This document shows, piece after piece, positions 5,530 to 22,529 of a DNA stretch of 60,482 nt. Positions within the stretch are counted from its first letter, which is position 1, and every line of letters starts with the position of its first letter. The notes beneath the pieces are model-generated. The model saw only the letters and a program-made list of their open reading frames with translations, had not been told where the DNA came from and searched no databases. The position numbers and the translations under genes are program-made. Origin of the DNA: an uncultured Candidatus Peribacteria bacterium (GTDB lineage: Bacteria; Patescibacteriota; Gracilibacteria; Peribacterales; Peribacteraceae); contig CAYUWH010000003.1 of NCBI GenBank assembly GCA_964448615.1, forward strand, positions 1 to 60,482. Reading direction: 5' to 3'.

Positions 5530-5620
<91 letters not shown>

Positions 5621-5781: not shown

Positions 5782-6082
5782 GATCCAATTGCTTAGTTCT
5801 TTCACGAGAACTCACTCTGCGCTCTTGTAGTGCAGGGTTGACCTCCGATAAATACCATCCGGTGTCCGGATGGAGGAGGTATGGACGGTCGTGAGATCGT
5901 TCAGTCTGCCTGGCTCTTTGCACGGCTGCCTTGGTAGCCAGGGCCCGTCGCGTTGCTCCGTGCCGCAGGCCTAACCAGGCAGCCCTGCAACTTCTCGTTG
6001 CAAAGTTTTTTCCAAAACTTCGCAACGACAAGATTCCACGAATTGGATCATTCCGGGGAGATGCTTCTCCCCGGATTTTTTT
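5782..6082 (+). ncRNA. retron-like structured ncRNA, unit 1
   Basis: 5' GATCCAATT (5782-5790) is complementary to 3' AATTGGATC (6041-6049). Conserved scaffold to about 5908, unit-specific arm 5909-6035, CCACG at 6036-6040. Terminator CCGGGGAG/CTCCCCGG plus a T-run at 6053-6082. Confidence 0.75.
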
Positions 6083-6121
6083 AGTTCAACTAGTTGTTGG
6101 CGCATTCTCACGTACTGGTAT

Positions 6122-6150
6122 TTGACATATTCATGCAATCCGCATTCAAT
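6122..6150 (+). promoter_or_regulatory. sigma70-like promoter of ncRNA unit 2
   Basis: TTGACA (6122-6127), 17-nt spacer, TTCAAT (6145-6150). The unit starts at 6157. Confidence 0.7.
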
Positions 6151-6156
6151 ATCGCC

Positions 6157-6450
6157 GATCCAATTGCTTAGTTCTTTCACGAGAACTCACCCTGCACTCT
6201 TGTAGTGCAGGGCTGACCTTCGCCAAAGACCATCCGGCGTCCGGATGGAGGAGGTATGGACGGTCGTGAGACCGTTCAGTCTTGTTGGCATTCGGAAGGC
6301 ATGCGTTATGTCGTTCCGGCCCTTCGCTTCGCTCAGAGCCGCAACTTAATAACGCAGCCATGCCGACCAAATGCATAAAGAAAACTCGTTTTCTTTATGC
6401 ATTCGGATCCACGAATTGGATCACCCCGGGAGGGCTCGCTCTCCCGGATT
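6157..6450 (+). ncRNA. retron-like structured ncRNA, unit 2
   Basis: 5' GATCCAATT (6157-6165) pairs with AATTGGATC (6414-6422). Scaffold to about 6283, specific arm 6284-6408, CCACG at 6409-6413. GC hairpin CCGGGAG/CTCCCGG at 6426-6447 with only a weak T-run (ATTGT). Confidence 0.75.
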
Positions 6451-6496
6451 GTACGTGCCCAACCACTTGTTGTTGGCAGATTCCATTCTTCGATAT

Positions 6497-6525
6497 TTGA
6501 CATGTCATGATAATCCATCTTCAAT
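6497..6525 (+). promoter_or_regulatory. sigma70-like promoter of ncRNA unit 3
   Basis: TTGACA (6497-6502), 17-nt spacer, TTCAAT (6520-6525). The unit starts at 6532. Confidence 0.7.
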
Positions 6526-6531
6526 ACTCTA

Positions 6532-6818
6532 GATCCAATTGCTTAGTTCTTTCACGAGAACTCACCCTGTACCCATCGTGGTACGGGGTTGACCTTCGCC
6601 AAAGATCATCCGGCGTCCGGATGGAGGAGGTATGGATGACCGCGAGGTTATCCGGTCGGACTGGCTAGCAGGGCTTGTCGCACTTGAGGGTGCCCTCGCT
6701 TCGCTCGAGGCATACCCTCTTCGTACGACGACGCCCTGACAGGCACTGACAAAGCGTTGTCAGTGCCTGTGTACCACGAATTGGATCGCCCCGGGGGAGT
6801 TCTCTCTCCCGGATTTTT
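6532..6818 (+). ncRNA. retron-like structured ncRNA, unit 3
   Basis: 5' GATCCAATT (6532-6540) pairs with AATTGGATC (6779-6787). Scaffold to about 6659, specific arm 6660-6773, CCACG at 6774-6778. Terminator hairpin 6791-6812 plus T5 at 6814-6818, which overlaps the next -35. Confidence 0.75.
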
Positions 6819-6845
6819 GACAAGTACAAAAAATCATCTTTACTG
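6817..6845 (+). promoter_or_regulatory. sigma70-like promoter of ncRNA unit 4
   Basis: TTGACA (6817-6822), 17-nt spacer, TTACTG (6840-6845; a weaker -10). The unit starts at 6851. Confidence 0.55.
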
Positions 6846-6850
6846 CTCTA

Positions 6851-7143
6851 GATCCAATTGCTTAGTTCTTTCACGAGAACTCACCCTGTACCCATCGTGG
6901 TACGGGGTTGACCTTCGCCAAAGATCATCCGGCGTCCGGATGGAGGAGGTATGGATGACCGCGAGGTCTCCAGTCTGCTGTGCTTTGACCTTCGAGCGAC
7001 TACTTTGGGTTCAGCCATTCGCTTCGCTTATGGCTGCCCCGGCGTATCGCCCGAAGCTCACGGCGTCACAATCAATGCTACGCATTCATTGTGACCCAGA
7101 CCCACGAATTGGATCACCCCGGGAGGGCTCGCTCTCCCGGATT
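6851..7143 (+). ncRNA. retron-like structured ncRNA, unit 4
   Basis: 5' GATCCAATT (6851-6859) pairs with AATTGGATC (7107-7115). The first 117 nt are identical to unit 3. Specific arm 6978-7101, CCACG at 7102-7106. The 3' hairpin (7119-7140) is identical to that of unit 2. Confidence 0.75.
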
Positions 7144-7189
7144 GTACGTGCCCAACCACTTGTTGTTGGCAGATTCCATTCTTCGATAT

Positions 7190-7218
7190 TTGACATGTCA
7201 TGATAATCCATCTTCAAT
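7190..7218 (+). promoter_or_regulatory. sigma70-like promoter of ncRNA unit 5
   Basis: TTGACA (7190-7195), 17-nt spacer, TTCAAT (7213-7218). Identical to the unit 3 promoter. The unit starts at 7225. Confidence 0.7.
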
Positions 7219-7224
7219 ACTCTA

Positions 7225-7520
7225 GATCCAATTGCTTAGTTCCTTGGAACTCACTCCGCACACGCAAGTGCTGCGGGGCTGACCTCCGCTTCACAATCAT
7301 CCGGTGTCCGGATGGAGGAGGTATGGACAGTCGTGAGGCTGTCCGGTCTGGGTGGTTCTCGATCACTCAGGTTAATCTCGTTTCGGCCTGTCGCATTCGC
7401 TCCAAGCCGCAACTGAGCTAACATGAGTGACCGACCCTTTTTCCCTGAAATGGGATTTCAGCGAAAAAGGGATCCACGAATTGGATCTCCCCGGGGAGAG
7501 GCATCTCTCCGGATTTTTTT
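7225..7520 (+). ncRNA. retron-like structured ncRNA, unit 5
   Basis: 5' GATCCAATT (7225-7233) pairs with AATTGGATC (7479-7487). This is the most divergent scaffold, with compensatory stem changes. Specific arm 7351-7473, CCACG at 7474-7478. Terminator GGAGAG/CTCTCC plus T7 ends at 7520. Confidence 0.75.
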
Positions 7521-7552
7521 CGACTTTTCCAACGTTCTTCCGGCGACGCATT

Positions 7553-9358
7553 ATGAGTCTTAACAGTATGCCCAGCGAGGAAACCCTTGAGTATTGCTCG
7601 CAATTATTGCAACGGCCGTTTACGGCGCCGTGGGAAGCGAGCGGTGTCCTGCTCAGTATTCTCGAGCAGTTGCGCACACGGCCAGGGGCTCTGTATCGCA
7701 CGCAATATATTGAAAAAGGCAACGGCAAAATGCGCCGAATCGATGAGCCCAACAAAATTTTGAAATTCGTGCAGAAGCAAATTTCGTTGGTGCTGAATCA
7801 TGCATGGGTCGCGCCGGGCGTATGCGGCTTCGTGCTGAACAACAGCGCGCAACAAGGATTGCGCGGCATGATCGACACGATGTACGTGGGAACGGAAGAG
7901 CATCCCGCTCGCGGGCCCATCAAGGCGGTGTACCAAGAAGATATTGAAAACCAGTTCGGCTCTATCACGCGCGATCAAGTGGAAGAGGCGCTGCGCGAGC
8001 ATTTCTTCACGCGCATTTTGCACGATTGGGAGAAGGGGCCGAAACTCCCCAACTTGCAAGTCGGCAGAATCGCCGAAGTGATTGCCGAAGTGTGTTGCTA
8101 CGAAGGACATTTGCCGCAGGGTTCTCCCGCGAGCCCCGTCCTCTCCAACATCGTCTGCACGCGTTTCGATTTCGCGTTGAGACGTTTGCTCGGCAAGCAG
8201 GGAGTGTACGGACGCTATGCTGACGACATGGTGGTGCTCGCGTGCGACAAGCTCGATACGAAATTCCGCGGGAAATTCCGCAACATTCTCAATACGTGCG
8301 GATTCAACGTGAATCGTGAAAAAGGAGAATATGAGGAACACCGGCGAAGGAAGACTGAGGAAGAAAGTTCCGGCGATCCGCGCCAACGTTTTCGCATTTG
8401 GGGAATGGATCTCGTGGTTGATGACGATGCGCAGACAGCATGGTTCCGCCTGCCGAGGAACATGGAGCGCCAATGGGTGGAAGATATCTCCGCAATGCTG
8501 GAGGGTGCCGGCGATTTGCCTCGTGACTCAAAAGAATTTATGAGTGACACGCGCGTATTGGAGGTGCTCGGCAGGCTTGCTTATGCGTTCCAGGTAACAC
8601 GTTGGGGGCATCCCGATCACATCAAGGGGCGCGAATTTCCCGGCCGTTCCGACGAGAGACCGGAGATTACCGGCGCGCATGAATTCCTCCCGAAGGATTT
8701 GGCACGAATCTGGCGGGCGTTCCGCGCCGAATTCGGAGGCAGGTTGCCGCAACGTCACCGACGTTGGTTCCACGATACGGCGCCGCTCTATAGCGCCAAC
8801 AGCACGCGGGTTCCCGTTACCTCCGGGGAGTTTGAAGAACGATTGCACGAATTCGGCGTTGAGAGAGGCTTTGATGAAGCGACATTGATCGCGGAGTTGA
8901 ATCACTATCAACAGCATTTTCAAAGCGATTATCCGCTCGTGGATGCCGATGGCGTCCAGTACCGCGCTGCCGGACAGAGCAATGATTACCCCGATGAAGC
9001 ATTGGCGGAAGCGTCTGAACTCTTTGTCCAGCAGAGTCCGAGCGTGAGCGATACGGAGCGTCTTGAATTGCTGCGCAGAACGCTCGCGTGCTTCAGCGGA
9101 TTCGTTCGCTGTTTATTTGCCGGGCAATTGCAAGGATTCAGCATCAGCGAGCAGCACGACTCATTACTGCCGGTGAACGGCCAGCGCCCGTGGCAGCGCT
9201 TGCTGCAAGAGTGTCGTCGCGCGGGCATCTCCACGCCTGAGCTTGTGCGGTTGTTTGATGCAAGCACGTCTCGCACGCAGTACCGCATTCGTCCGAAAAC
9301 CCTCCCCAAAAAAGTGCATCGTGAACATCTGCACTTGTACGGTTTCGATAACGATTGA
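7553..9358 (+). CDS. reverse transcriptase (retron/UG-like, not assignable to a known class by eye) with long C-terminal extension
   Basis: RT motifs in order: KGNGKMRRIDEP (motif 1), YQEDIENQFGSI (motif A), LPQGSPASPVLSN (motif B, ~8111-8150), RYADDMVVL (motif C, ~8212-8235), GFNVNREKGE (motif D). About 280 aa follow with no recognisable domain. Start set at the first ATG after the unit-5 terminator; the track ORF opens at 7427 inside the ncRNA. Confidence 0.9.
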   Translation: MSLNSMPSEETLEYCSQLLQRPFTAPWEASGVLLSILEQLRTRPGALYRTQYIEKGNGKMRRIDEPNKILKFVQKQISLVLNHAWVAPGVCGFVLNNSAQQGLRGMIDTMYVGTEEHPARGPIKAVYQEDIENQFGSITRDQVEEALREHFFTRILHDWEKGPKLPNLQVGRIAEVIAEVCCYEGHLPQGSPASPVLSNIVCTRFDFALRRLLGKQGVYGRYADDMVVLACDKLDTKFRGKFRNILNTCGFNVNREKGEYEEHRRRKTEEESSGDPRQRFRIWGMDLVVDDDAQTAWFRLPRNMERQWVEDISAMLEGAGDLPRDSKEFMSDTRVLEVLGRLAYAFQVTRWGHPDHIKGREFPGRSDERPEITGAHEFLPKDLARIWRAFRAEFGGRLPQRHRRWFHDTAPLYSANSTRVPVTSGEFEERLHEFGVERGFDEATLIAELNHYQQHFQSDYPLVDADGVQYRAAGQSNDYPDEALAEASELFVQQSPSVSDTERLELLRRTLACFSGFVRCLFAGQLQGFSISEQHDSLLPVNGQRPWQRLLQECRRAGISTPELVRLFDASTSRTQYRIRPKTLPKKVHREHLHLYGFDND

Positions 9359-9385: not shown

Positions 9386-12300
9386 ATGTCCAAGAAAGCC
9401 TCTGTCGCCGCCGCTCCGACCGTCGTCACCGACGAGTTGTACGCATTGCTCGAGCGGGATCCCACTGCTGCCATCTTGCAGACGAGTCTTGCGGAAGATG
9501 CCGCGGCGCATCTCGACGATACGTCGGAAAAGCGCATGGCCGTCGAGCCGGAAATCGTGGGAATTCTTCTCGCAGGATTCCGTGCATCCGTGGAGCAATA
9601 CATATCCAGCGAACTCCTCGAGGCGCACCCAGATTTGCAGGATATGAAGGAGAGCATTCTGCAGGGGAGGCGAAAAGTGCGCGGCGACATCATGCGATTA
9701 CTGAGAGAGCACGGCGGGCATTTGCGCAGCGCTTCGCGGGAACAGAGTCGCTTCAATCATGAAGTGACGTACGAACCGGGTAAGGATGTGGAGCCGACAC
9801 TCGCGAACTTCCGGCATTTGCGCGGGTTGCACAAAGACATTGAAGCACGCCGCGATGAGATGGCTGCCACGCTCGGCGGAGCGCAGCGGTCGTTGCGCGC
9901 GAATATTCCGGGCATGGCGGCCTTCTCGCGCTTGATCGTGCAAACTGAAGGTGGTTCCGAGGAGCATCGTCTCAAGACATTGATGCGCCAAATGTGGGGT
10001 GACGAGCGCGTGCAGGCGGAGTGGGTGCGTGCGCAACACGTGGCCTATGCGCAGGCGGCCGAGCGCGGAGACAGAATCATCGAAGGTCCTTCGACGGTGG
10101 TATTGCTCAACCGCATTCATCGCGAAATCAACGTGAACAAAATGCGCGGCTCAACAGGTGTGGCGCTCGTTGGTCCTCCGGGCTGGGGAAAGACCGAAAT
10201 CTTGAAGCACTATTTCGCGGAAGTCGGCATCCACTTGGTCACGGCGGACATGTCGCGCATCAGCAATGCCGCCACGCTCATGGCGCGCCCGGCGTTGCAG
10301 GATGAATCGTTCCGGAGTCTTGATGATGTCATCGATGCGATTGAGACGATGACGCATCGCGACTTCCTCCGTTTCTATACGCAACATCCGGAGTTGTGTC
10401 AGCAGGCAGGCATTGATTGGGACCAGATCAAAAATCCGCGCGCAACGCAGCGTCTTGCCAATGCCCGGCAAGCACTGGCGGCGCCGCTTAAAGATGCGCG
10501 CGGGAACCGCATCGCCGAAGCATTGCAGACCCACGTTCGTCAGCGCGGCGTCGTCTTCGGCCTCCTTGCCAAAACCTTGCTGAGACCCAACAGCGCGTTC
10601 GGCTTCGAAGAATTCACGTACCTCGACATTGCCAACGCGCCGTTCGTCAATGGTCTCATGACGACCATTCCCGCAACGGATGAAGAAGCGGGCTTGCCTC
10701 CGGATGAACGCACGACTCCCGGCGATCTGAAGGGGTGGTTCCAGGAACCGATCAGCGGCATCTGGTTCCGCGTACCCAAGACCTTCTCGATCAACGGCAC
10801 GGCGAACGTGGGAGCGGCGTACCGCAACCAGGGAATTTCCGCGGCGTGGGAGAGCCGCTTCGGCGGAGGATTGATCACGATCCCGTTGCGTGATCAGCGC
10901 AAAAAAGAAACAGCGCCGATCGATGACGGCGTCGAATTCCAGGAAACGCCGGAAGGCAATCAATTCAAGGAGTATTTGGAGACCCTCGTCTGGCCGCGCC
11001 TCTCCGATTCTACGACAGGCCGTTTCGAATTGGATGACGACACCGCGTACCGTCTCGACTTCCTCGTCCGCCGCGTGTTGCCGCATATCATCTCCACGCT
11101 GCGCCGTCGCAATCGCAAAATGCCGAACCTCTCGATTCGCACGCTGCAGGATCTTTGCAATCGTTTGCTTCCTCGATCCCAAGACGAAGACTTGAAGGGC
11201 GTGAATTTGGATACCGCGATTTGGGAATCCATCGTTGAACCGCTGGCTGCCGATATCGATCAATACGGGGAAACAGTCGAAGTGGTGCTGGCATGGTTGA
11301 TGGGCTCCGGCGTGCTGCGCAACGTCGGTACGCGCGTGAAGGGGTTGTTGTCGGGTCCGGTGCATCAGCGTTTGCAAAAAACGATCGATCAGCTTCGTAC
11401 TTCCGGCTCGGGGAATACCGAGCAGGCGGCGGAAACATTCGAGCAATTCCAAGATACGCAGTACACCAGGGCCGAAGGAGTGCATGCGGGTTCTTGCCAT
11501 GCGTGCGGCGTGACGGCATGTCCGGTTCACGGCAAAGACACCGAGGAATATCTCCATCAACTCGCGCAACTGGAGCGCGCAGCGGCGATGGGTATGACGC
11601 CGGAGATCGCACGCGCCATCAGCAAGCGTCAGGCTGAATTGTTACGCGCTCAGGAATGGGGAATGCTGCTCGAAGTGTATTTGGAAACGAACGGTGCAAA
11701 GCAGTTGGAGAAAATTCCTGCGGGGCTGGAAGAATATTTGCAGAGCTTGGTGACGGCATGTACCGAAGATCCTGAACAGGCTCCCGAGCACATTCAAATT
11801 TTGCAGCGAGCTTCCGCCAATGCGTTGCCCGTCAAAGTTGATCAGCAGTGGATGTGCACGATGATGGATTACTGGGGTAAGGTGCTCGCAAATACTGAAT
11901 TCGTAGATGTTCACGAGCGTCTTAAGCAGCTGCAAGATGTACCGGGAGCTTCTGCGGAGCAGGACCGTGTGCGCATTGGAAAAGATATGCAACGTATTGT
12001 GCGCGACCGTATCGCGCCGGCCTTGCGTGTCATGAGGACGTTGCAAGAATGGTCCAAGCAAACGCGTGATCTCAACATGGATGAATGTATGGTGTTGACC
12101 GATATGGTCGATTACCTGCCTGCCCAGTCGTTGATGGTGGCTCGCGAGTTGACGGCGGAGGAAGAGCATAAAGATGTGGTGAAAACCGCGGTGGACCGTT
12201 CAGTGAAAAGCCGCAAGAAAGAGCTGCAAGCGGAATTTAAAGCGATGCGCGACAATCTCGGTGGCGGTGCCAATCAAGAGGCGGCGCAAGGGCGCGTCAT

Positions 12301-12616
12301 TGCCCGTCCGCCTGCCGAAATCGCACAGATGCCCCAACTCGTTCAGCAGTATGGCGCCGTGCAGCGTCTGTTGCGCGAAGCGGGGGCACTCGCGAAATTG
12401 CATGCTATTCCCACGGAAGAGCTCACCGAACTCGTATCACTTGCGTCCGGCTTGCTGCGTGAAGGATTCGGGGGCGAAAAAGAATCCGACGTGTGCATTC
12501 CTTTTGTGCGCTGCATGCGCACGATCGCGGATGTTCGCGGCATGAGCGTCAATGATGTGCTGCAATATTTCTTCGAACCCAAAGTGGTGCCGTATCCTCC
12601 CATTCGTCAATTCTAA
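9386..12616 (+). CDS. large P-loop NTPase, AAA+ (MoxR/AAA_5-like) core with long helical extensions
   Basis: 1076 aa. Walker A GVALVGPPGWGKTEILK (~10160-10200). Candidate Walker B AFGFEEF about 130 aa downstream. The rest is not recognisable. Starts 27 nt after the RT stop. Confidence 0.6.
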   Translation: MSKKASVAAAPTVVTDELYALLERDPTAAILQTSLAEDAAAHLDDTSEKRMAVEPEIVGILLAGFRASVEQYISSELLEAHPDLQDMKESILQGRRKVRGDIMRLLREHGGHLRSASREQSRFNHEVTYEPGKDVEPTLANFRHLRGLHKDIEARRDEMAATLGGAQRSLRANIPGMAAFSRLIVQTEGGSEEHRLKTLMRQMWGDERVQAEWVRAQHVAYAQAAERGDRIIEGPSTVVLLNRIHREINVNKMRGSTGVALVGPPGWGKTEILKHYFAEVGIHLVTADMSRISNAATLMARPALQDESFRSLDDVIDAIETMTHRDFLRFYTQHPELCQQAGIDWDQIKNPRATQRLANARQALAAPLKDARGNRIAEALQTHVRQRGVVFGLLAKTLLRPNSAFGFEEFTYLDIANAPFVNGLMTTIPATDEEAGLPPDERTTPGDLKGWFQEPISGIWFRVPKTFSINGTANVGAAYRNQGISAAWESRFGGGLITIPLRDQRKKETAPIDDGVEFQETPEGNQFKEYLETLVWPRLSDSTTGRFELDDDTAYRLDFLVRRVLPHIISTLRRRNRKMPNLSIRTLQDLCNRLLPRSQDEDLKGVNLDTAIWESIVEPLAADIDQYGETVEVVLAWLMGSGVLRNVGTRVKGLLSGPVHQRLQKTIDQLRTSGSGNTEQAAETFEQFQDTQYTRAEGVHAGSCHACGVTACPVHGKDTEEYLHQLAQLERAAAMGMTPEIARAISKRQAELLRAQEWGMLLEVYLETNGAKQLEKIPAGLEEYLQSLVTACTEDPEQAPEHIQILQRASANALPVKVDQQWMCTMMDYWGKVLANTEFVDVHERLKQLQDVPGASAEQDRVRIGKDMQRIVRDRIAPALRVMRTLQEWSKQTRDLNMDECMVLTDMVDYLPAQSLMVARELTAEEEHKDVVKTAVDRSVKSRKKELQAEFKAMRDNLGGGANQEAAQGRVIARPPAEIAQMPQLVQQYGAVQRLLREAGALAKLHAIPTEELTELVSLASGLLREGFGGEKESDVCIPFVRCMRTIADVRGMSVNDVLQYFFEPKVVPYPPIRQF

Positions 12617-12619
12617 ACG

Positions 12620-14572
12620 ATGTCCGAATCCTCTCCTGAACGGCCGCGCAATCCAACCCGTCTCCCGGAGATTCTCAGTGATCTGCATATCGAATTGTTG
12701 CGCCCGATTTGCGAAGGGGTGGACAGTGCGGAATTGCGCCCGTCCGATCCCAATACGGAGAGCAGCGGCTATGCCACGATCATCTCGCAGCCGGACAAAG
12801 ATGCACCGCAGCGGCTCGTCATCTATTACCATCCCGTGACGGTGCACACGATCGGCGAGGCGCGCGTGTTCGCGATCATGCTGCATGAACTGGGGCATCA
12901 TCATCCTGAAGTTGAGCGGTTCCAGCATTCGTGTTTGCGCTTTGCCAAGGCGGCGGAAGGAGAGCAATTTTTACCTCCGAACCTGGCTGACAAAGCGAAG
13001 CTCGTGCATACGTGTTTCAATATCCTCGCAGACGTATTGCTTGAAACCATTTGCTGCCGCAATCTGCCTGCGGAAAAAATGATGCGCAGCGCGCTTTCCT
13101 ATAATCGTGCGCATCTCTTTTTTGAGCACATGGATCCGGACGGGACGCGTTTGCAGGCATACGAAGAGTCGGATCGTCAGCTGTTTCCGTGGTCGGAAGA
13201 GGAATTTCGCAAGATGGAAGCGTGGTCCCAGCTTATGCAGGCATCGCTCGTCGCGCCATTTTTTCAATGGCCGGACGAGGCGTGGATGGCTCCGTCGCTT
13301 GCCAAGCGCATGCCGGAAGTGCGGCAGCTGTTCAGTGAGCTCCGCAGCCCCGCGACCCGCGGCGAGATGAAAGGACATTTGTTCCTCAAATACGTCGGTA
13401 TCGTCGGAGATTTGATTCGAGAGGAGATGCACAAGCTTTCCGCCGCCGGCGGCGATACGACCCAAAAATCGGGCGAACTCAGCGATCGTGTCGGGGATAC
13501 TTGTGATCGCGCGGATCGCATCACCAAGCCCGGAGAGGCGGAAGGACAGCCTTCAACGGAACAGAAAGAGCCTCCGCCCAGAGATCTGACTGAAGATATC
13601 GGTGCACAGCGCAAACGCATGGATGACTTGATGCAAAGCCAGAATGCGGAAGAGGAAGAATATATCAAACAGAAAGCGGCCGAGCTTGGCGTTAACGTAA
13701 AAACGTATCGTCTCTATCTCGATATTTGTAAAGAGTGGGAGGATGTCATCAAAGAGTTCACCAGGGCGCTCTCGCAATTCGTGTTGCGTGATTTTCAAGT
13801 GGAACCGCGTACGGGATTTTCCGAGGGCTACATGATCACGCCGGGCCGGGAATTTGAAACGTACATGCGTATCCGAATGGGGGAGGAAGACCCCGACACG
13901 ATGGAGGGATACCAGACGTTCCGCAATCCGCGCGTGTTGCAGCTTTACCCGTGCATCGACACGTCCGGAAGCATGAAGCACCGTATCGAAGAAACGTTGG
14001 CGTATTACACCGTTATCGCGAAGTCCTGCTTTAATATTCAACAGGAATTGAAGCACAACGCATCGAACTACAACATTCCTTTCAGTTGGCCGCCCCCCCT
14101 TTCGCTCGAAGTCGTGACGTTCTCCGACACGCCCGAAGTGGTCGTGCCGTTTCAAGAAACGATGGACGAGAAGACGCTTCTCAAAGGCTTCGAGAGCATC
14201 ATTCATGAGACGAGCGTGGGGCAAGGCACCAACGACAGCGGAGCGCTGAAATTCGTGTATAAAGAAATGGAAAAGAACGATGTGAACGCGCTCAAAATTC
14301 TCATGATGCTGACGGACGGCGTGGGGAATCACGACCTTCTGGAGCCGATCATCCGGCAAATCGAAGAGGATCCGGGGATTTATTTCCTTGTGTCCGGAGT
14401 GGGCTACGGGTCGGGTGCGGTGCAGAAAGCGTATCAAGATCGCTTCCGACCCACGCAGGATTTTCATGTGTTTGCCATGGAGCATGAAACGGTGAAAGAG
14501 GCGCTGCTCGAGACTCTCGGGCTCATCAAGCAATGGACTGCGGAATTCTACGCCCGCAATACACCGAGCTGA
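12620..14572 (+). CDS. zincin-like (HExxH) + von Willebrand factor A domain protein
   Basis: 650 aa. N-terminal IMLHELGHHH (HExxH, ~12884-12898). C-terminal vWA with MIDAS-like DTSGSM (~13958-13975) and MMLTDGVGN. Starts 3 nt after the NTPase stop. The layout resembles the metallopeptidase-N + VWA-like proteins that partner MoxR ATPases. Confidence 0.65.
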   Translation: MSESSPERPRNPTRLPEILSDLHIELLRPICEGVDSAELRPSDPNTESSGYATIISQPDKDAPQRLVIYYHPVTVHTIGEARVFAIMLHELGHHHPEVERFQHSCLRFAKAAEGEQFLPPNLADKAKLVHTCFNILADVLLETICCRNLPAEKMMRSALSYNRAHLFFEHMDPDGTRLQAYEESDRQLFPWSEEEFRKMEAWSQLMQASLVAPFFQWPDEAWMAPSLAKRMPEVRQLFSELRSPATRGEMKGHLFLKYVGIVGDLIREEMHKLSAAGGDTTQKSGELSDRVGDTCDRADRITKPGEAEGQPSTEQKEPPPRDLTEDIGAQRKRMDDLMQSQNAEEEEYIKQKAAELGVNVKTYRLYLDICKEWEDVIKEFTRALSQFVLRDFQVEPRTGFSEGYMITPGREFETYMRIRMGEEDPDTMEGYQTFRNPRVLQLYPCIDTSGSMKHRIEETLAYYTVIAKSCFNIQQELKHNASNYNIPFSWPPPLSLEVVTFSDTPEVVVPFQETMDEKTLLKGFESIIHETSVGQGTNDSGALKFVYKEMEKNDVNALKILMMLTDGVGNHDLLEPIIRQIEEDPGIYFLVSGVGYGSGAVQKAYQDRFRPTQDFHVFAMEHETVKEALLETLGLIKQWTAEFYARNTPS

Positions 14573-17741: not shown

Positions 17742-17816
17742 TGGAGCCGCCCATGGGAATTGAACCCACGACCCCGTCCTTACCATGGACGTGCTCTACC
17801 ACTGAGCTAGGGCGGC
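17742..17816 (-). tRNA. tRNA-Thr (anticodon GGT), CCA encoded
   Basis: The reverse complement reads GCCGCCCTAGCTCAGTGGTAGAGCACGTCCATGGTAAGGACGGGGTCGTGGGTTCAATTCCCATGGGCGGCTCCA. Anticodon loop ATGGTAA, giving GGT. Confidence 0.9.
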
Positions 17817-18386: not shown

Positions 18387-19610
18387 TTAAATCTTCAGTT
18401 TTTTCTGCACTCCATTCAACACTTCTCCCAACTTCCGAATCTCCTCCTCCGTCGTATACATCCCAAGCGACACGCGCACCGATGCAGGAATGCCGAGTGT
18501 TTGATGCAGAATCTGTGCACAGTGTTGTCCGGCGCGCACGCAAATATTCTGGGATCCGAGTAGCTCGGCGATATCGTGAGGATGCGCCCCTTTCATGGTG
18601 AAGCTGATGCATCCGCGGCGATCCTCAGGGTCTATGTTTCCAAGGATGGTAATGCCGGGAAGCGAGGCAAGTGTTTCATGAAGAACACGCATCAGTTGTT
18701 GTTCATGTGCGAGGCGATCATGCCACGAGTAGTGCGCGGCCCATTCCAGCGCCGCTGCCAGGCCGATGGCTCCGGAGATCGGTTGCGTACCTGCTTCGAA
18801 GCGCTGTGGGGGATCGGCTGGTGCAAATCCATTGATAGTTACATCGCGGATCATGCCGCCTCCGCCCAAAAACGGCGGCATCGCTTCGAGTAATTGACGT
18901 TTGGCATAGAGCACGCCGATGCCGTCTGGCCCGTAGAGTTTGTGTCCGGAGAATGCGAGAAATTCACAGTCGAGATGCGCCACGTTCATTTCGTCGTGTG
19001 CTGCGAGTTGAGACGCATCAATAAGAACGGCTGCTCCTCGGTCATGCGCCTGCATGATCAAATGTTCCAATGGCTGACGGACGCCGATCACATTGCTCAA
19101 GCCCGTGAGCGCGCAAAGTTTGACGGGATGTTCGTGTAGCAATTGTTGTAGATGCGCTTGGGAAATCGTCCCATCGTGGTCCATGCGGATCCATGCGATG
19201 CGTACGTTTTTTTCCTCCGCAAGTTGCAGCCACGGAATGACGTTGCTGTGGTGTTCGAGTTCTGAGAGCAGGACCACGTCGCCTTCGTGCAGCATGCATC
19301 GCCCCCATGCATGGGCGACGAGATTGATCGCTTCGGTGGCGTTTTTCGTAAAGACAATCTCATCCGTGTGCTTCGCATGCAGAAACCTTGCAACGGTTTT
19401 TCGCGCCGCTTCGAAACGCTCCGTCGCTTTTTCCGCGAGCGGGTGCATGGAGCGGTGCGCTCCTCCGACGGATGTTTCGTAAAATTCCCGCATCGCCTCA
19501 AGAACAGCGTCCGGCTTCTGGCTGGTTGCGGCGCTGTCGAGATACGCCAGTTCCGGCTCGCGCCTGAAGAGGGGAAATTGGCCTCGGATGGAGGAGAGAG
19601 GGGTGGTCAT
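18387..19610 (-). CDS. sufS: cysteine desulfurase SufS (class V aminotransferase)
   Basis: 407 aa. FPLFRREPELAYLDSAATSQKP at the N-terminus, FSGHKLYGPDGIGVLY (PLP lysine), RAGQHCAQ (catalytic Cys loop). Confidence 0.9.
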   Translation of the reverse strand: MTTPLSSIRGQFPLFRREPELAYLDSAATSQKPDAVLEAMREFYETSVGGAHRSMHPLAEKATERFEAARKTVARFLHAKHTDEIVFTKNATEAINLVAHAWGRCMLHEGDVVLLSELEHHSNVIPWLQLAEEKNVRIAWIRMDHDGTISQAHLQQLLHEHPVKLCALTGLSNVIGVRQPLEHLIMQAHDRGAAVLIDASQLAAHDEMNVAHLDCEFLAFSGHKLYGPDGIGVLYAKRQLLEAMPPFLGGGGMIRDVTINGFAPADPPQRFEAGTQPISGAIGLAAALEWAAHYSWHDRLAHEQQLMRVLHETLASLPGITILGNIDPEDRRGCISFTMKGAHPHDIAELLGSQNICVRAGQHCAQILHQTLGIPASVRVSLGMYTTEEEIRKLGEVLNGVQKKLKI

Positions 19611-19661
19611 GCGGAGGAATCAGCTTACCCCAACTACGTGCTGCTGGTACACTATGGCATC

Positions 19662-22529
19662 ATGACACCCTCTATTGCGCGTTTTCTCCGTATCGCTTTC
19701 CTGGCTGGCCTGCTGACATGGGGCATTTATGCCACCTTGATCTACTTCGCAATACCCGTGCATCAGACGGTATTGGTGGCCGATTCCCAGCGTACAGGCA
19801 TTGCAGAAGCGTGTGCGCAGTATGGTCTTCTTTGTCAGGGATGGCTTGCATTGATTCCTTCCATAACACATACCATTAGCCGTGCAGGGCCATTTGCGTG
19901 GTATTTGATTCTCTCGCTCTTGGCAGCGGCCACGTATCTCTTCGTGCAGTTCATGAATCGCGGGGATTGGCGCCTGTCTATCCGGCTTACGCCGCTCAAG
20001 CTGATTGGCATCTTTTTTGCATCGATCTGGCTCATGTTTACGGTGCTGACGTTTTCCGGAGGGGATCAGCCCCTCTATCGCATGGTTGAGCCATCTCTCA
20101 CGGTCTATCCCAACATCGGAGAGCAAGCGCTGGCCGGCCTTCAGCAAAATTTTGCCTCATTGCAGAGCAAGAATTGTTTAACCGAAGTCGGCGTGTCGGC
20201 GGCGGGGGGGAAGGTCTTCGACATGAAGATGTCATGTATTCAGGGTGCGTTTTTCCGATTGGGTGTCACGCAATTCCTGTTCATCTTCTTCATCTTGTTT
20301 GATCTGCTGGTGTTCGGGTCATTGCTGCTGAAATTCCTGCGGCGTCCGCAAGTCTCCTTGATGATGGAAGCGATGTTGAGCGTGGGCCTCGGCGCGTGCG
20401 CGATGATCGCGATTCTCTGGGCACTCGCGGCGATGGGGGTGTATACGCAATTGGCAGGCTGGGCGTTGGTGCTGCTGATTCCGGCATTGTGTTACCAACA
20501 GGCATGGTACTGGATTCAGAAAGGACTTCATCATGAATGGACCTTCGAAGATACGCTGTATGGCGGCATGACCGCTATCGCATGGTTGTTGATCAGTTAT
20601 CTTGCACTCAATTTCCTCAGCGTGGTGCGTCCGTTCCCCATCGGATGGGATGATCTTGGCCGTTATTTGAACCAGCCACGCTTGCTCGTGAGCTATGCAG
20701 AGGCGATCCCCACCATGGCGGCGTTCTATTGGGAATACATGACGTCGCTCGGGTTCTTGTTATTCGGGTATGACAGCGTGTTCGGCGCCACCGCTTCAAT
20801 GATGATCAACTGGATGGCGGGCTTGCTCGCGGTGCTTGTGACGTTTGTCTTCGGGCGCACGTACATGGGCAAAGGTGCGGGCATGCTCTCGGCGCTCGTG
20901 TACTACACGCTGCCGATGGTCGGACACTTCTCGTTCGCCGACATGAAGATCGATAACGCGATGTACTTCATGGGAGCGCTGACCATTCTGGCATATTTTG
21001 ATTTCCTGTTTCCACGGATTTCCTCGGAACAGGAAGGGCATGAATTGTCGGAAGCCGCTCCTGCCACATTCCGCGAACGGTTGGGATGGATGATTCTTGC
21101 CGGCGTGTTCGCCAGTTTTGCGTTCGCCCTCAAGCCGACCGCCATCATCGTGATCATGGCGATGCTCGCAGCGCTCTTCGGCGCTTCGGTGCACTGGACC
21201 GCGTTCGTCGGTGCCGCGCTCTTCGCGTGGGGGTACTACACCAAGATCGATCGCTTCAATGTCGCGGAAGTCGGTCGCAGAGTATTTGGCGATGCGCAGA
21301 TATTCGACCGCGTGACGGTCACGGGCATTTTCATGGTGACGGGCTTGGCATTCCTCGGATACGCATTCTGGAAGTATCGTGCAGCATTCATCAAGACGTT
21401 GATCGCCGCCGGATTGTTCATGGCCAGCTTCGCGGTGTGCATGCTGCCATGGATCACCTACAACAACATTTCCTACGGCAACGTCGTTCCAAGTTTGGTC
21501 TTCACTTCCGCCAATCATTACACGCCGAACTTCGTGATGGACGGTTCCGTGACCGTATCCAACGATCCCAAGCTCCGCGTGCTTCCTGAGCATCTCAAGA
21601 TCGATCCGAATGCGGATGTGTGCAAGGGGACCGCCAAAGAAGAAGAGATCGATCGTTACTGGGGTTATGACCATCACGGTTGGAAGCACTATCTCACGCT
21701 GCCCTGGAGAGCGGTGATGAATATTGATGCTGCGGGCTACTACGTCACGCTTGTGCCGGGATTGTTGCTGTTCCCGCTTCTGCTTTTGATGCCGGCGTTT
21801 TGGTCGAGAAGGGGAAGGTGGATGCGATGGCTCTTCGTGGCCACGCTCTTCATGTTGATTCAGTGGGTCTTCTTCGCGAACGGCATCATCTGGTACGGAC
21901 TCGGCATGTTCTTCGGCTTTGCGGTGGCGCTCGAGTTCCTCTTTGCGAAAGATCCGGACCAACACGATTCGGCGAAGGGAGATCAAAAGTTGGGAACGGC
22001 AGCGCGCGTATTGTGCGGTATTCTTATCTTCTGCTCCTTTATAACAGCATTCGGGCATCGTTTCTGGCAGTTTGAGCAACAGCGAAACATGCTGGAATAT
22101 CCGATGGGCAAAATAACCGCCGAAGCCATGCGTCTTCGTACAGTTCCATATTACGACGATATCCGCCAAGTGGTGATGGATCGATTCGCGAATATGCCGG
22201 ACCGTCCGTATGTGTTCCGCATGGGAACATTCATTCCCTACTTCATTCCGCGCAATCTCGAAGTGCTTCCTGTCGCCGATAACCAGCTAACGTTCTTCAA
22301 CTGTCTGAATCAGGGTGATGATCCGGCCGTGATCACGCAGCGCCTGAAAGCGCTCGGCTTCAATAGCATCATTTTCGATACGAACACCGCGACGATCGAG
22401 CAGAATCTGGAGGGAACGTTGCATAAGAAGGTAGAGCGATTCGTCGATTACGTGAACGATCCCCGCAGCGGTTTACAGGTGAAAATCTTCGATCCGGAAG
22501 CCGGTCTTGCGTTCATTATTATTCCATGA
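19662..22529 (+). CDS. large polytopic membrane protein, possible GT-C-fold glycosyltransferase
   Basis: 955 aa from the first ATG that does not overlap sufS. More than 15 hydrophobic segments and a ~150-aa C-terminal soluble domain. The GT-C call rests only on size, topology and genomic context. Confidence 0.4.
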   Translation: MTPSIARFLRIAFLAGLLTWGIYATLIYFAIPVHQTVLVADSQRTGIAEACAQYGLLCQGWLALIPSITHTISRAGPFAWYLILSLLAAATYLFVQFMNRGDWRLSIRLTPLKLIGIFFASIWLMFTVLTFSGGDQPLYRMVEPSLTVYPNIGEQALAGLQQNFASLQSKNCLTEVGVSAAGGKVFDMKMSCIQGAFFRLGVTQFLFIFFILFDLLVFGSLLLKFLRRPQVSLMMEAMLSVGLGACAMIAILWALAAMGVYTQLAGWALVLLIPALCYQQAWYWIQKGLHHEWTFEDTLYGGMTAIAWLLISYLALNFLSVVRPFPIGWDDLGRYLNQPRLLVSYAEAIPTMAAFYWEYMTSLGFLLFGYDSVFGATASMMINWMAGLLAVLVTFVFGRTYMGKGAGMLSALVYYTLPMVGHFSFADMKIDNAMYFMGALTILAYFDFLFPRISSEQEGHELSEAAPATFRERLGWMILAGVFASFAFALKPTAIIVIMAMLAALFGASVHWTAFVGAALFAWGYYTKIDRFNVAEVGRRVFGDAQIFDRVTVTGIFMVTGLAFLGYAFWKYRAAFIKTLIAAGLFMASFAVCMLPWITYNNISYGNVVPSLVFTSANHYTPNFVMDGSVTVSNDPKLRVLPEHLKIDPNADVCKGTAKEEEIDRYWGYDHHGWKHYLTLPWRAVMNIDAAGYYVTLVPGLLLFPLLLLMPAFWSRRGRWMRWLFVATLFMLIQWVFFANGIIWYGLGMFFGFAVALEFLFAKDPDQHDSAKGDQKLGTAARVLCGILIFCSFITAFGHRFWQFEQQRNMLEYPMGKITAEAMRLRTVPYYDDIRQVVMDRFANMPDRPYVFRMGTFIPYFIPRNLEVLPVADNQLTFFNCLNQGDDPAVITQRLKALGFNSIIFDTNTATIEQNLEGTLHKKVERFVDYVNDPRSGLQVKIFDPEAGLAFIIIP

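Follow-up and report, generated by a model that had tools for sequence, protein, structure and literature searches.

The window, i.e., the whole stretch of 60,482 nucleotides that was analyzed, contains a cassette composed of retron-like ncRNA units, a reverse transcriptase (RT), an ATPase (gene 2), and a vWA protein (gene 3). This four-part cassette matches no described RT-based system. Comparison with related loci showed that genes 2 and 3 form an ancient module of two genes, and that in one of its clades a retron-like RT and structured ncRNA units always precede the pair. We see about an even chance that the four parts together constitute a new defence cassette of the retron type whose output is a putative metalloprotease gated by ATP. 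The preliminary description had not recognized the pair as a familiar effector of RT systems, and indeed neither protein matches any PADLOC model, and a literature search revealed no link of retrons with either MoxR or vWA proteins.

The three protein genes follow one another on the forward strand: the RT (7553 to 9358), gene 2 (9386 to 12616, 1076 aa), and gene 3 (12620 to 14572, 650 aa). The distance between the RT stop at 9358 and the ATG of gene 2 is 27 nt, and only 3 nt separate the stop of gene 2 from the ATG of gene 3 (TAA ACG ATG). Genes 2 and 3 were confirmed at exactly these coordinates, both with an ATG start, and all quoted motifs were found, i.e., GPPGWGKT (residues 263-270) and FGFEEF (405-410) in gene 2 and HELGHHH (89-95), DTSGSM (447-452), and MMLTDG (562-567) in gene 3. 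Judged by sequence comparison, both are real genes and not chance ORFs, because full-length homologues exist (E = 0 to 1e-55 for gene 2, one at E = 4e-101 for gene 3) and the motifs are kept in sequences that are only 20-40% identical. The cassette is bordered by housekeeping genes, and around it the window contains neither further defence genes nor an integrase or att repeat.

The linkage of the parts was analyzed next to homologous loci. A retron-like RT was present directly upstream of the long-form ATPase in 12 of 12 loci, and thus the RT adjacency is not confined to this genome, as had been considered in the preliminary description. A homologue of gene 3 directly followed the ATPase in all 10 loci that extend far enough. 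The intergenic gaps across the RT-linked loci range from -23 to +61 nt, the protein identity is 20-42%, and the neighbouring genes are unlike in every locus. All named hosts are CPR bacteria, and the family, with about 24 clusters in 1.84 billion representatives, is rare. The possibility that the homologues stand mostly without an RT and in housekeeping contexts had also been raised. It turned out to be partly true: shorter relatives of both genes form pairs of ATPase and vWA gene without an RT, but their contexts are not housekeeping; these pairs sit among arrays of paralogues of about 290 aa.

Gene 2 was shown by homologue and motif comparison to be an AAA+ ATPase of the MoxR/AAA_5 clade, as had been proposed. 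This assignment is based on relatives of 700-940 aa (E = 1e-25 to 1e-52), 9 of 10 of which scored above the AAA_5 cut-off when scanned, and not on Pfam matches of gene 2 itself, which stayed below threshold in the direct scan (AAA 20.2 bits versus a cut-off of 21.2; AAA_5 E = 0.14). Eight of the 10 scanned relatives also weakly resemble GvpN, and midasin is the only PDB sequence that aligns over the whole core. The protein consists of an N-terminal helical region, the AAA+ core (about residues 236-600), and about 450 C-terminal residues that are specific to the RT-linked clade. In an alignment of 54 ATPases (21 long-form, i.e., RT-linked, and 33 short-form), G263, G266, G268, and K269 of the Walker A motif (10172 to 10195, forward strand, as all features described here) are invariant. 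The same is true for E409 of the Walker B variant FGFEEF (10598 to 10615), which had thus been guessed correctly. N474 (10805-10807), R491 (10856-10858), and R585 (11138-11140) are also invariant in all 54 sequences; they were assigned as probable sensor 1, arginine finger, and sensor 2, respectively, on the basis of the order of the motifs and their surroundings (FTGNxG, ALxSR, SxRTI) rather than of a structure.

The RT-linked ATPases show an adaptation of their own. A putative zinc knuckle, C704-x2-C707-x4-C712-x2-H715 (11495 to 11530), is present in 21 of 21 long forms and in none of the 33 short forms, which have a gap at this site. In addition, the acidic pair of the Walker B motif is NE or EE in 18 of 21 long forms and DE in 30 of 33 short forms. 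The position of the Asp is occupied by Asn in 17, Asp in three, and Glu in one of the long forms, the latter being gene 2 itself. Loss of the Asp could result in weak or no hydrolysis, and its replacement by Asn or Glu suggests that the ATPase might act as a slow switch rather than as a processive unfoldase.

In the proposed mechanism, which like the preliminary description assumes an effector/sensor role of the pair and gating by an RT product, genes 2 and 3 would be the protein-output module of the retron-type cassette. The RT would prime on the conserved G adjoining the closing stem of each ncRNA and copy the variable 3' halves, yielding several distinct msDNA species. The RT-msDNA complexes would bind to those regions of the ATPase that are peculiar to this clade, i.e., the zinc knuckle and the terminal helical regions, and keep the complex of ATPase and vWA-HExxH protein inactive at rest. 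A phage that perturbs the msDNA would trigger nucleotide-dependent remodelling by the ATPase, during which the vWA MIDAS might clamp an acidic ligand, and the putative metallopeptidase domain would be activated. Proteolysis of host or phage proteins would then abort the infection.

Classically, MoxR-vWA pairs are maturation chaperones and not toxins. The pair could therefore be an assembly or remodelling chaperone for RT-ncRNA/msDNA particles, which might load or exchange different ncRNAs on the RT, and the output would be the RT product itself. Those MoxR-vWA pairs that have been characterized act in maturation or remodelling (reviewed in PMC7159879), and the zinc knuckle of the RT-linked clade could bind nucleic acid. 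Furthermore, pairs without RT stand beside diversified paralogue arrays and RT-linked pairs beside diversified ncRNA arrays, a parallel that suggests a logic of many clients and one remodeller. Because of the paralogue arrays around the RT-less relatives, the ancestral role of the pair may have been client remodelling rather than killing. For the cassette, however, a pure chaperone role seems rather unlikely, because it leaves the invariance of the HExxH motif in 12 of 12 partners unexplained, the compared loci contain no other conserved candidate effector, and retrons are not known to require a chaperone for the production of msDNA.

Gene 3 was shown by profiles and homologue alignments to be the vWA/MIDAS partner of gene 2 that carries this invariant motif. 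The N-terminal HExxH domain covers about residues 1-260 and is joined by an acidic/helical linker to the C-terminal vWA domain (about residues 440-625; 13937 to 14494). The vWA assignment of the preliminary description was upheld by the Pfam profiles VWA_2 (1.1e-8) and VWA (2.4e-8), which both exceed the cut-off, by Foldseek, for which all top matches were vWA or integrin I domains, and by the complete MIDAS, i.e., D447-x-S449-x-S451 (13958-13972), T537 (14228-14230), and D566 (14315-14317). The DxSxS motif is present in 12 of 12 homologues. The putative N-terminal zincin was based on two conserved motifs. The candidate zinc-binding and catalytic motif HELGHH (residues 89-94; 12884 to 12901) is found as HExxH in 12 of 12 homologues, including two partners from loci without RT, and it is followed by a helix with N134-x3-D138-x3-E142 (13019 to 13045), which is invariant in nine sequences and may provide the third metal ligand. 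In contrast, the N-terminal half matched none of the Pfam peptidase profiles or PDB sequences, and the family had no match to DUF2201_N or DUF2201 even at E <= 10.

This missing match is compatible with a defence system in which HExxH is a structural or regulatory metal site and not a protease, and in which the output would be of another kind, e.g., a target bound by the MIDAS might be sequestered or taken apart at the expense of ATP. Moreover, HExxH is expected by chance in about 2% of proteins of this length, as estimated from residue frequencies. Nevertheless, we regard this explanation as unlikely, because HE-x-G-H, N134, D138, and E142 do not vary among sequences of 21-35% identity, and the clade without RT is no exception. 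The order of a strand, the HExxH helix, and a second helix would also fit the minimal zincin layout, albeit in a low-confidence model: the AF2 models were poor (pLDDT 48.7 and 50.4), and the HExxH region of gene 3 was unusable.

The RT (601 aa) was identified by RVT_1 (E = 7.6e-12) and by the family alignment. It contains a YADD box (8216-8227), which is followed by a conserved C-terminal extension of about 290 aa. Translation most likely starts at ATG 7553 rather than at GTG 7427, because the additional codons behind the GTG would overlap both the final ncRNA unit and the terminator of this unit, and because the alignment with homologues begins only near residue 43. Retron RT models were the top matches in PADLOC and NCBIfam, yet the score was beneath every cut-off of the curated retron models. 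In the family alignment the canonical retron motif NAxxH is absent and xWG replaces VTG.

Five retron-like ncRNA units precede the RT (5782 to 7487; individually 5782-6049, 6157-6422, 6532-6787, 6851-7115, and 7225-7487). A separate TTGACA-type promoter is present for each unit. At the start of each unit stands the 5' inverted repeat GATCCAATT, after which comes the G of TTGCT. The 5' half is conserved and contains hairpins and the motif GGAGGAGG, and the 3' half is variable, with a perfect, unit-specific hairpin of 13-15 bp, followed by ACG and AATTGGATC. Terminator-type hairpins follow the units; the scan called three of five in the window. One unit folds with z = -8.25, and the closing stem and one internal hairpin covary between lineages. 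Similar units were found upstream of the RT in loci L001, L003, L010, L011, L013, and L022, and the number per RT locus ranges from one (L003) to five (the window). A strict scan detected 21 units, every one directly upstream of an RT, and none elsewhere or in loci without RT.

The presence of several units in a locus, whose 3' halves differ from unit to unit, together with a zinc knuckle of nucleic-acid type on the RT-linked ATPase, could also mean that the msDNAs are sequence-specific guides or decoys, and that the ATPase recognizes a matching invader nucleic acid and licenses the protease, as a retron-made analogue of CRISPR-guided proteases. This is quite improbable, as each variable segment is a perfect self-complementary hairpin and thus a poor guide, the segments match the rest of the window at chance level only, the single hairpin that was checked had no exact match in viral contigs, and L003 contains only one unit. 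MoxR-vWA pairs often serve in cofactor insertion, and housekeeping genes flank the cassette in the window, but a housekeeping maturation pair with incidental RT adjacency is close to refuted by the RT link in 12 of 12 loci with near-zero spacing at 20-42% identity and with different neighbours each time, by the sequence signatures of the RT-linked clade, and by the extreme rarity of the family.

Several known systems resemble the proposed defence cassette in part. Retron type I-A consists of RT-msDNA, an ATPase, and an HNH nuclease as second effector (Mestre et al. 2020, PMC7736814). The order of ncRNA, RT, ATPase, and second effector protein is the same, terminal inverted repeats also close the ncRNA, where a G adjoins the stem, and the RT is nearest to retron RTs. 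In contrast to type I-A, the ATPase is of the AAA_5/MoxR type and not a type I ATPase, the second protein carries vWA and HExxH instead of HNH, the RT has the deviating motifs and the extension described above, and one to five ncRNA genes are present per locus instead of one. MoxR-vWA ternary conflict systems (with VMAP, iSTAND, FtsH, or beta-propeller), for which the pair was proposed to act as a threshold switch that depends on NTP and sets effectors free (Kaur, Burroughs, Iyer, Aravind 2020, PMC7159879), share the MoxR-clade AAA+ protein, the vWA protein, and a third partner. However, the third partner of the cassette is an RT with ncRNAs and not VMAP or iSTAND; the only RTs in PMC7159879 are DGRs, and no N-terminal motifs of VMAP type (WxhapG, PsWRxa) can be seen in gene 2. 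Furthermore, the cassette occurs in CPR bacteria, and those systems in multicellular actinobacteria or cyanobacteria.

As in the classical MoxR/AAA_5 systems CbbQ-CbbO, NorQ-NorD, GvpN, and RavA-ViaA, the vWA gene directly follows the ATPase gene and the MIDAS is intact, and the GvpN model gives weak matches to short-form relatives of gene 2 over both halves of the AAA+ core. Gene 2 is, however, three to four times longer than these ATPases, with large N- and C-terminal helical regions, the zinc knuckle, and the replaced Walker B Asp, and its partner bears HExxH and is linked to an RT and not to a metalloenzyme client. Proteins with DUF2201_N (putative metallopeptidase) and DUF2201 (VWA-like) also combine an N-terminal HExxH domain with a C-terminal vWA-like domain beside a MoxR-type ATPase; they would represent no more than an analogous or very distantly related family, because the gene 3 family matches neither model. 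Lastly, retron types VIII and XI are associated with a protease or esterase (Mestre et al. 2020, PMC7736814) and thus are RT-based and share a proposed proteolytic output. In these types a serine esterase or trypsin-like domain is fused to the RT and recognizable ncRNA modules are absent, whereas the cassette has clear ncRNAs and a putative metallopeptidase on a separate vWA protein, which would be controlled by an AAA+ ATPase.

The cassette appears to be a retron-type system in which the effector module is new and the RNAs are, unusually, present in several copies; it is rare and has so far been found only in bacteria of the candidate phyla radiation (CPR). Its domain identities, its strict synteny, its clade-specific features and its structured ncRNAs were shown by the analysis. 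Gene 2, the gene of an AAA+ ATPase, occupies positions 9386-12616 of the plus strand (1076 aa), and gene 3, which encodes a vWA-HExxH protein, positions 12620-14572 of the same strand (650 aa). The stop codon of the upstream reverse transcriptase (RT) gene lies at 9358, 27 nt before the ATG of gene 2, and the stop codon of gene 2 is separated from the ATG of gene 3 by 3 nt. The ORF positions of genes 2 and 3 are exactly those in the preliminary description, and all motifs that it had named were recovered, i.e., GPPGWGKT and FGFEEF in gene 2, and HELGHHH (residues 89-95), DTSGSM (447-452) and MMLTDG (562-567) in gene 3. Its interpretation was largely right on protein identity and on the linkage to an RT.

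The ORF upstream of gene 2 was identified as a reverse transcriptase (RVT_1, E = 7.6e-12). The best matches were retron RT models, e.g., PADLOC RT_IX at 7.5e-32, with about 100-109 bits for RT_IX, III-A, XI, XII and others, and 104 bits for NCBIfam St85 at a cut-off of 235; every retron RT score from PADLOC and NCBIfam was below its cut-off, many types scored alike, and none stood out. Hallmarks of retron RTs are the NAxxH motif in region X and the VTG triplet in RT7 (Mestre et al., PMC7736814). In the alignment of the RT family (S/D)A(Y/Q)xG(L/I) replaces NAxxH and (I/V)WG replaces VTG, which leaves no more than the Ala and the Gly in common. The RT carries a C-terminal extension of about 290 aa (8480-9358, RT residues about 310-601 counted from the ATG at 7553), which roughly doubles its size compared with a typical retron RT. 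The extension has no Pfam match; it is conserved in the family and has invariant residues of its own, e.g., W, P, F, R and an SxLP motif. The first 42 codons of the ORF, which opens with a GTG (7427-7552), overlap the fifth ncRNA unit and its terminator and are absent from the homologues. Judged from these sequences, the real start is probably the ATG at 7553 (MSLNSMPSEE...).

Relatives of gene 2 were retrieved by an exhaustive HMM search of 1.84 billion representatives, which revealed 93 proteins in two tiers. The first tier contains about 24 full-length proteins of 950-1078 aa, and the second tier proteins of 700-940 aa that align with profile positions of about 190-650 only (E = 1e-25 to 1e-52). 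Counted as clusters, the long form has about 24 and the short form about 40. In an alignment of 54 sequences the family motifs GxPGxGKT, hhhh(D/N)E, FTGNxG, ALxSR and SxRTI occur in this order. In the Walker A motif GPPGWGKT (residues 263-270) the residues G263, G266, G268 and K269 are invariant. FGFEEF (residues 405-410, positions 10598-10615) had been picked as Walker B, rightly, as its glutamate E409 is invariant in the 54 sequences. N474, R491 and R585 are also invariant, and their order and context fit sensor 1, the arginine finger and sensor 2, respectively, to which they were assigned by alignment.

The preliminary description had called gene 2 MoxR/AAA_5-like, and this was supported via the second-tier homologues. 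The direct profile matches of gene 2 were confined to the P-loop and stayed below the cut-offs, with 20.2 bits for Pfam AAA (cut-off 21.2) and 12.6 bits for AAA_5 (gathering cut-off 22; E = 0.14). Among six close relatives AAA_5 was matched in only one, and the recurring matches were AAA_16 and AAA_22, both below the threshold. A profile search of the PDB with the close family gave a match at Walker A only. The AAA_5 cut-off was passed by nine of ten second-tier proteins, and eight of the ten weakly matched the GvpN model over both halves of the core; GvpN belongs to the CbbQ/NorQ/GvpN branch of the MoxR ATPases. When the profile was deepened, it matched numerous AAA+ entries of the PDB, of which only midasin, an AAA_5 protein, covered the whole core. 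Because gene 2 itself scores below the cut-off and the intermediates pass AAA_5, its membership in this clade rests on the latter, and homology to them indicates indirectly that gene 2 encodes an AAA+ ATPase of the AAA_5/MoxR clade. An AF2 model of gene 2, based on a four-sequence alignment, had a pLDDT of 50.4 overall and below 50 across the AAA+ core, which made the core unusable.

The long-form ATPases, which are linked to an RT, differ from the short-form relatives of RT-less loci in several features. They have extra N- and C-terminal helical regions. Residues 704-715 of gene 2 (11495-11530) form a putative zinc knuckle, C-x2-C-x4-C-x2-H, which is present in 21 of 21 long forms versus 0 of 33 short forms. 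Through this knuckle the ATPase may touch the RT or its nucleic acid. The position of the Walker B aspartate is occupied by Glu in gene 2 of the window, by Asn in 17 of 21 RT-linked ATPases and by Asp in 30 of 33 short forms. This change suggests that nucleotide hydrolysis could be altered or slowed in the RT-linked clade.

Gene 3 encodes a vWA/MIDAS protein, the MIDAS being the metal site of the vWA domain. The vWA fold had been proposed before; the vWA models were matched above their cut-offs (VWA_2, 36.1 bits, cut-off 27; VWA, 34.8 bits, cut-off 23.8) and the MIDAS residues D447, S449, S451, T537 and D566 are invariant in nine sequences. Four of five family members matched the vWA Pfam models, all 12 homologues have DxSxS, and Foldseek with a weak model of gene 3 returned only vWA, integrin I and midasin MIDAS domains and thus recovered the vWA half alone. 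The N-terminal half had been described as a zincin. The part of this claim that stood is the motif itself: all 12 homologues, at 21-36% identity, carry HE[LIV]GH, and the invariant residues N134, D138 and E142, on a predicted helix 45-53 residues past the first His, are candidates for the third zinc ligand. The profile searches did not back it. No Pfam peptidase family recurred in nine members, among which the stray matches were one Reprolysin_4 (E = 0.13) and one M50B (E = 0.35), and a sequence search of the PDB with the N-terminal half gave no match. A match of the DUF2201 type, which had been foreseen, was absent from all members at E <= 10 for both DUF2201_N and DUF2201 (PF13203 / PF09967), the only point on which the preliminary description was wrong. 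The zincin assignment is motif-based, because no peptidase profile, DUF2201 model or PDB sequence matches, and the N-terminal half is thus a putative, unproven metallopeptidase. In an AF2 model based on a two-sequence alignment the pLDDT was 48.7, and about 30-40 in the HExxH region, which was unusable.

The co-occurrence of the three genes was checked at 12 long-form loci with genomic context, namely the window, a JGI contig, L001 (= L002, L009), L003 (= L004-L007), L008, L010, L011, L013, L014 (= L015), L021, L022 and L023. An RT gene was found directly upstream on the same strand in all 12, and a gene 3 homologue directly downstream of the ATPase gene in all ten loci that extend far enough. 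The gap between the RT gene and gene 2 ranged from -23 to +31 nt, and that between genes 2 and 3 from -11 to +61 nt. The proteins of these loci are 20-42% identical, and the neighbouring genes differ at every locus. All named hosts are CPR bacteria, i.e., Peregrinibacteria, Peribacteria or Gracilibacteria, and the cassette seems to be confined to this group. No relatives of gene 2 or gene 3 were found in viral contigs, phage records or plasmid records. One scan of metagenome contigs found nothing; the other yielded L018, which was rejected as a false relative since it is a trypsin-STAND protein that has only the P-loop in common. A concatenated alignment of genes 2 and 3, used as a word-index query, returned relatives of gene 2 alone.

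The ATPase/vWA pair is an old module, of which one clade is strictly RT-linked. At L017 and L012 a short-form AAA_5 gene is directly followed by the gene of a vWA protein of about 700 aa, which is homologous to gene 3 over its full length and has both HExxH and MIDAS. L017 is clearly without an RT, and L012 has none in the sequence at hand, which begins 442 nt upstream, so that an RT is possible beyond. At L019 the short-form ATPase gene has no vWA partner and lies inside a tandem array of paralogues of about 290 aa. Arrays of ORFs of about 280-320 aa surround the RT-less AAA_5 genes, with at least 17 ORFs at L019 (1-18820) and seven at L017 (5141-7913 and 12926-16575). They form one diversified paralogous family with 19-65% identity and have neither a Pfam match nor similarity to proteins of the window. 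By analogy, one remodeller beside an array of diversified partners would parallel the ncRNA arrays of the RT-linked clade.

Five tandem non-coding units are located between tRNA-Ser and the RT gene in the window (5782-7487, plus strand). Each has a TTGACA-type promoter of its own. The 5' end of the unit carries the GATCCAATT repeat, and the G that comes next belongs to an invariant TTGCT; the 5' half is conserved, with hairpins and a GGAGGAGG motif. The 3' half is variable and closes with a unit-specific perfect hairpin of 13-15 bp, and ACG plus AATTGGATC at the 3' end repeats the 5' end in inverted form. Behind each unit lies a terminator-type hairpin, which the scan called in three of the five cases. 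The fold of one unit has an energy of -131 kcal/mol (z = -8.25), its closing stem being formed by the terminal repeats. As in retrons, the ncRNA is adjacent, closed by terminal inverted repeats, and has a conserved G beside the stem. It has the msr-msd layout of retrons, but is multi-copy with diversified msd-like halves.

A strict scan for units (eight of eight pairs plus TGCT...CGAA, 120-330 nt apart, both strands) was applied to 11 sources, i.e., eight RT-linked sequences and three RT-less controls. It revealed 21 units in seven lineages, all of them intergenic and directly upstream of the RT, and none elsewhere. Five were found in the window and five in L010, three each in L013 and L022, two each in L001 and L011 (about four by eye in the latter), one in L003 and none in L023 or in the RT-less L012, L017 and L019; the copy number of related loci with units was thus 1-5. 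A looser scan found no units in L008, L014 and L021, contigs that end within about 250 nt of the RT. The three units of L022 (4106-5037, minus strand) lie upstream of the RT on the opposite strand, and therefore their transcription would be divergent from that of the RT.

The closing stem varies in sequence by lineage yet always pairs, i.e., it shows covariation, and TTGCT is invariant. The hairpin that precedes the GGAGG motif was registered by hand over the seven lineages and is 97% paired; six of six pairs are changed on both sides, and none of 500 shuffles reached the covariation score. RNAalifold found no structure in a MAFFT alignment of the 5' halves, because the hairpins are out of register in it. 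No Rfam family matched the array, even with permissive thresholds. In each unit of the window GGAGGAGGT-ATG could open an MD(G/D/S)RE ORF of 18-47 aa (5882-5938, 6256-6378, 6632-6740, 6951-7094 and 7323-7421). These small ORFs were judged non-coding, because L001 and L011 lack the ATG and compensatory RNA changes are seen in the stem behind it. A DGR-like reading was also rejected, as the variable parts match the rest of the window only by chance, over 10-14 nt.

To our knowledge, the effectors known from retrons and DRTs comprise nucleases, enzymes that target NAD or nucleotides, membrane proteins and RT-fused proteases. Retron ncRNAs that are both multi-copy and diversified have not, as far as we know, been reported, and few defences are known in CPR bacteria. 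As in classical MoxR systems, the vWA gene is located directly beside the ATPase gene, in all ten RT-linked loci that reach far enough and in L012 and L017. The ternary VMAP/iSTAND MoxR-vWA systems have VMAP or an inactive STAND as third component, whereas here the RT is the only conserved third gene, and the WxhapG / PsWRxa motifs of the corresponding MoxR N-termini were not seen in gene 2 when it was read by eye. The PADLOC-DB v2 defence models gave no match for gene 2 and only ZorA for gene 3 (E = 0.073). In the literature searched, retrons together with MoxR or vWA were found only in Kaur et al. 2020 (PMC7159879), where the RTs are DGRs. A vWA or AAA+ partner is mentioned neither among the 13 retron types of Mestre et al. 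(PMC7736814) nor in the 2021 review of prokaryotic RTs, and the former, the retron classification paper, does not mention multi-copy retron ncRNAs.

The most likely mechanism, to which we give an even chance as a whole, is a defence by an msDNA-controlled ATPase/vWA-HExxH protease. The RT would prime on the G next to the closing stem and convert the variable half of each ncRNA into msDNA. The RT-msDNA complexes would dock on the knuckle-bearing regions of the ATPase and hold the ATPase/vWA-HExxH complex off. Upon disturbance of the msDNA by a phage, nucleotide-dependent remodelling would switch on the metallopeptidase domain, while the MIDAS grips an acidic ligand, and proteolysis would bring either the cell or the phage to a halt. 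With several msDNAs the system would respond to more kinds of trigger, and the change in the Walker B motif suggests a slow switch. Alternatively, the ATPase/vWA pair could be a chaperone for RT-RNA/DNA particles, which we consider unlikely. Next in rank is the rather improbable case of a defensive system in which HExxH is non-catalytic; the failure to match any peptidase profile would fit it, and the invariance of the motif speaks against it. The variable 3' halves might suggest that the msDNAs are guides or decoys, but the unit 3 hairpin (unit 3, 6532-6787) has no exact match in viral contigs, and we give this reading little credence.

Under the msDNA-controlled protease mechanism, the coupling of a MoxR-type AAA+ switch to a vWA-metallopeptidase would give RT-based immunity an output logic of a new kind, and the cassette would link the idea of MoxR-vWA systems as a "threshold switch", which comes from comparative genomics, to three tractable genes. 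The variable multi-copy ncRNAs pose the question whether several sensor DNAs can be made by a single RT. What the RT-linked clade has gained, i.e., the zinc knuckle, the terminal domains and a changed Walker B motif, can naturally be studied by comparison with the RT-less sister modules. We tentatively propose, as a possibility below even chance, an undescribed class of retrons, in which a CPR-restricted RT and one to five diversified ncRNAs yield a panel of msDNA sensors that jointly control an AAA+/vWA-gated metalloprotease. If true, no earlier RT-based immune system would have had an ATP-gated protease as output, nor several templates per RT.

The genes that flank the cassette in the window are housekeeping genes, encoding PheT, a cobalamin adenosyltransferase, an RF-1-domain protein, an M50 peptidase, DUF218 and a cysteine desulfurase; that genes 2 and 3 are an incidental housekeeping pair is nevertheless highly improbable, given the RT at every long-form locus. 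A tRNA-Ser(GGA) gene (5530-5619, plus strand) precedes the first ncRNA unit by about 160 nt, and a tRNA-Thr(GGT) gene (17742-17816, minus strand) lies 3.2 kb past gene 3. An integrated island was considered and rejected, as the tRNA-Ser end is not directly repeated on the far side of gene 3 and neither an att-like repeat nor an integrase is present around the cassette in the window. An ORF of 1080 aa at 19287-22529 (plus strand) has no Pfam match at E <= 0.001; the cysteine desulfurase gene, which lies on the other strand, overlaps with it at its own 5' end. At the metagenomic locus L003 a HicA-toxin gene pair (451-862) is located just upstream of the cassette, and about 1 kb downstream of it (9811-11493) a Ro60/TROVE-vWA protein is encoded, an RNA-binding quality-control factor.
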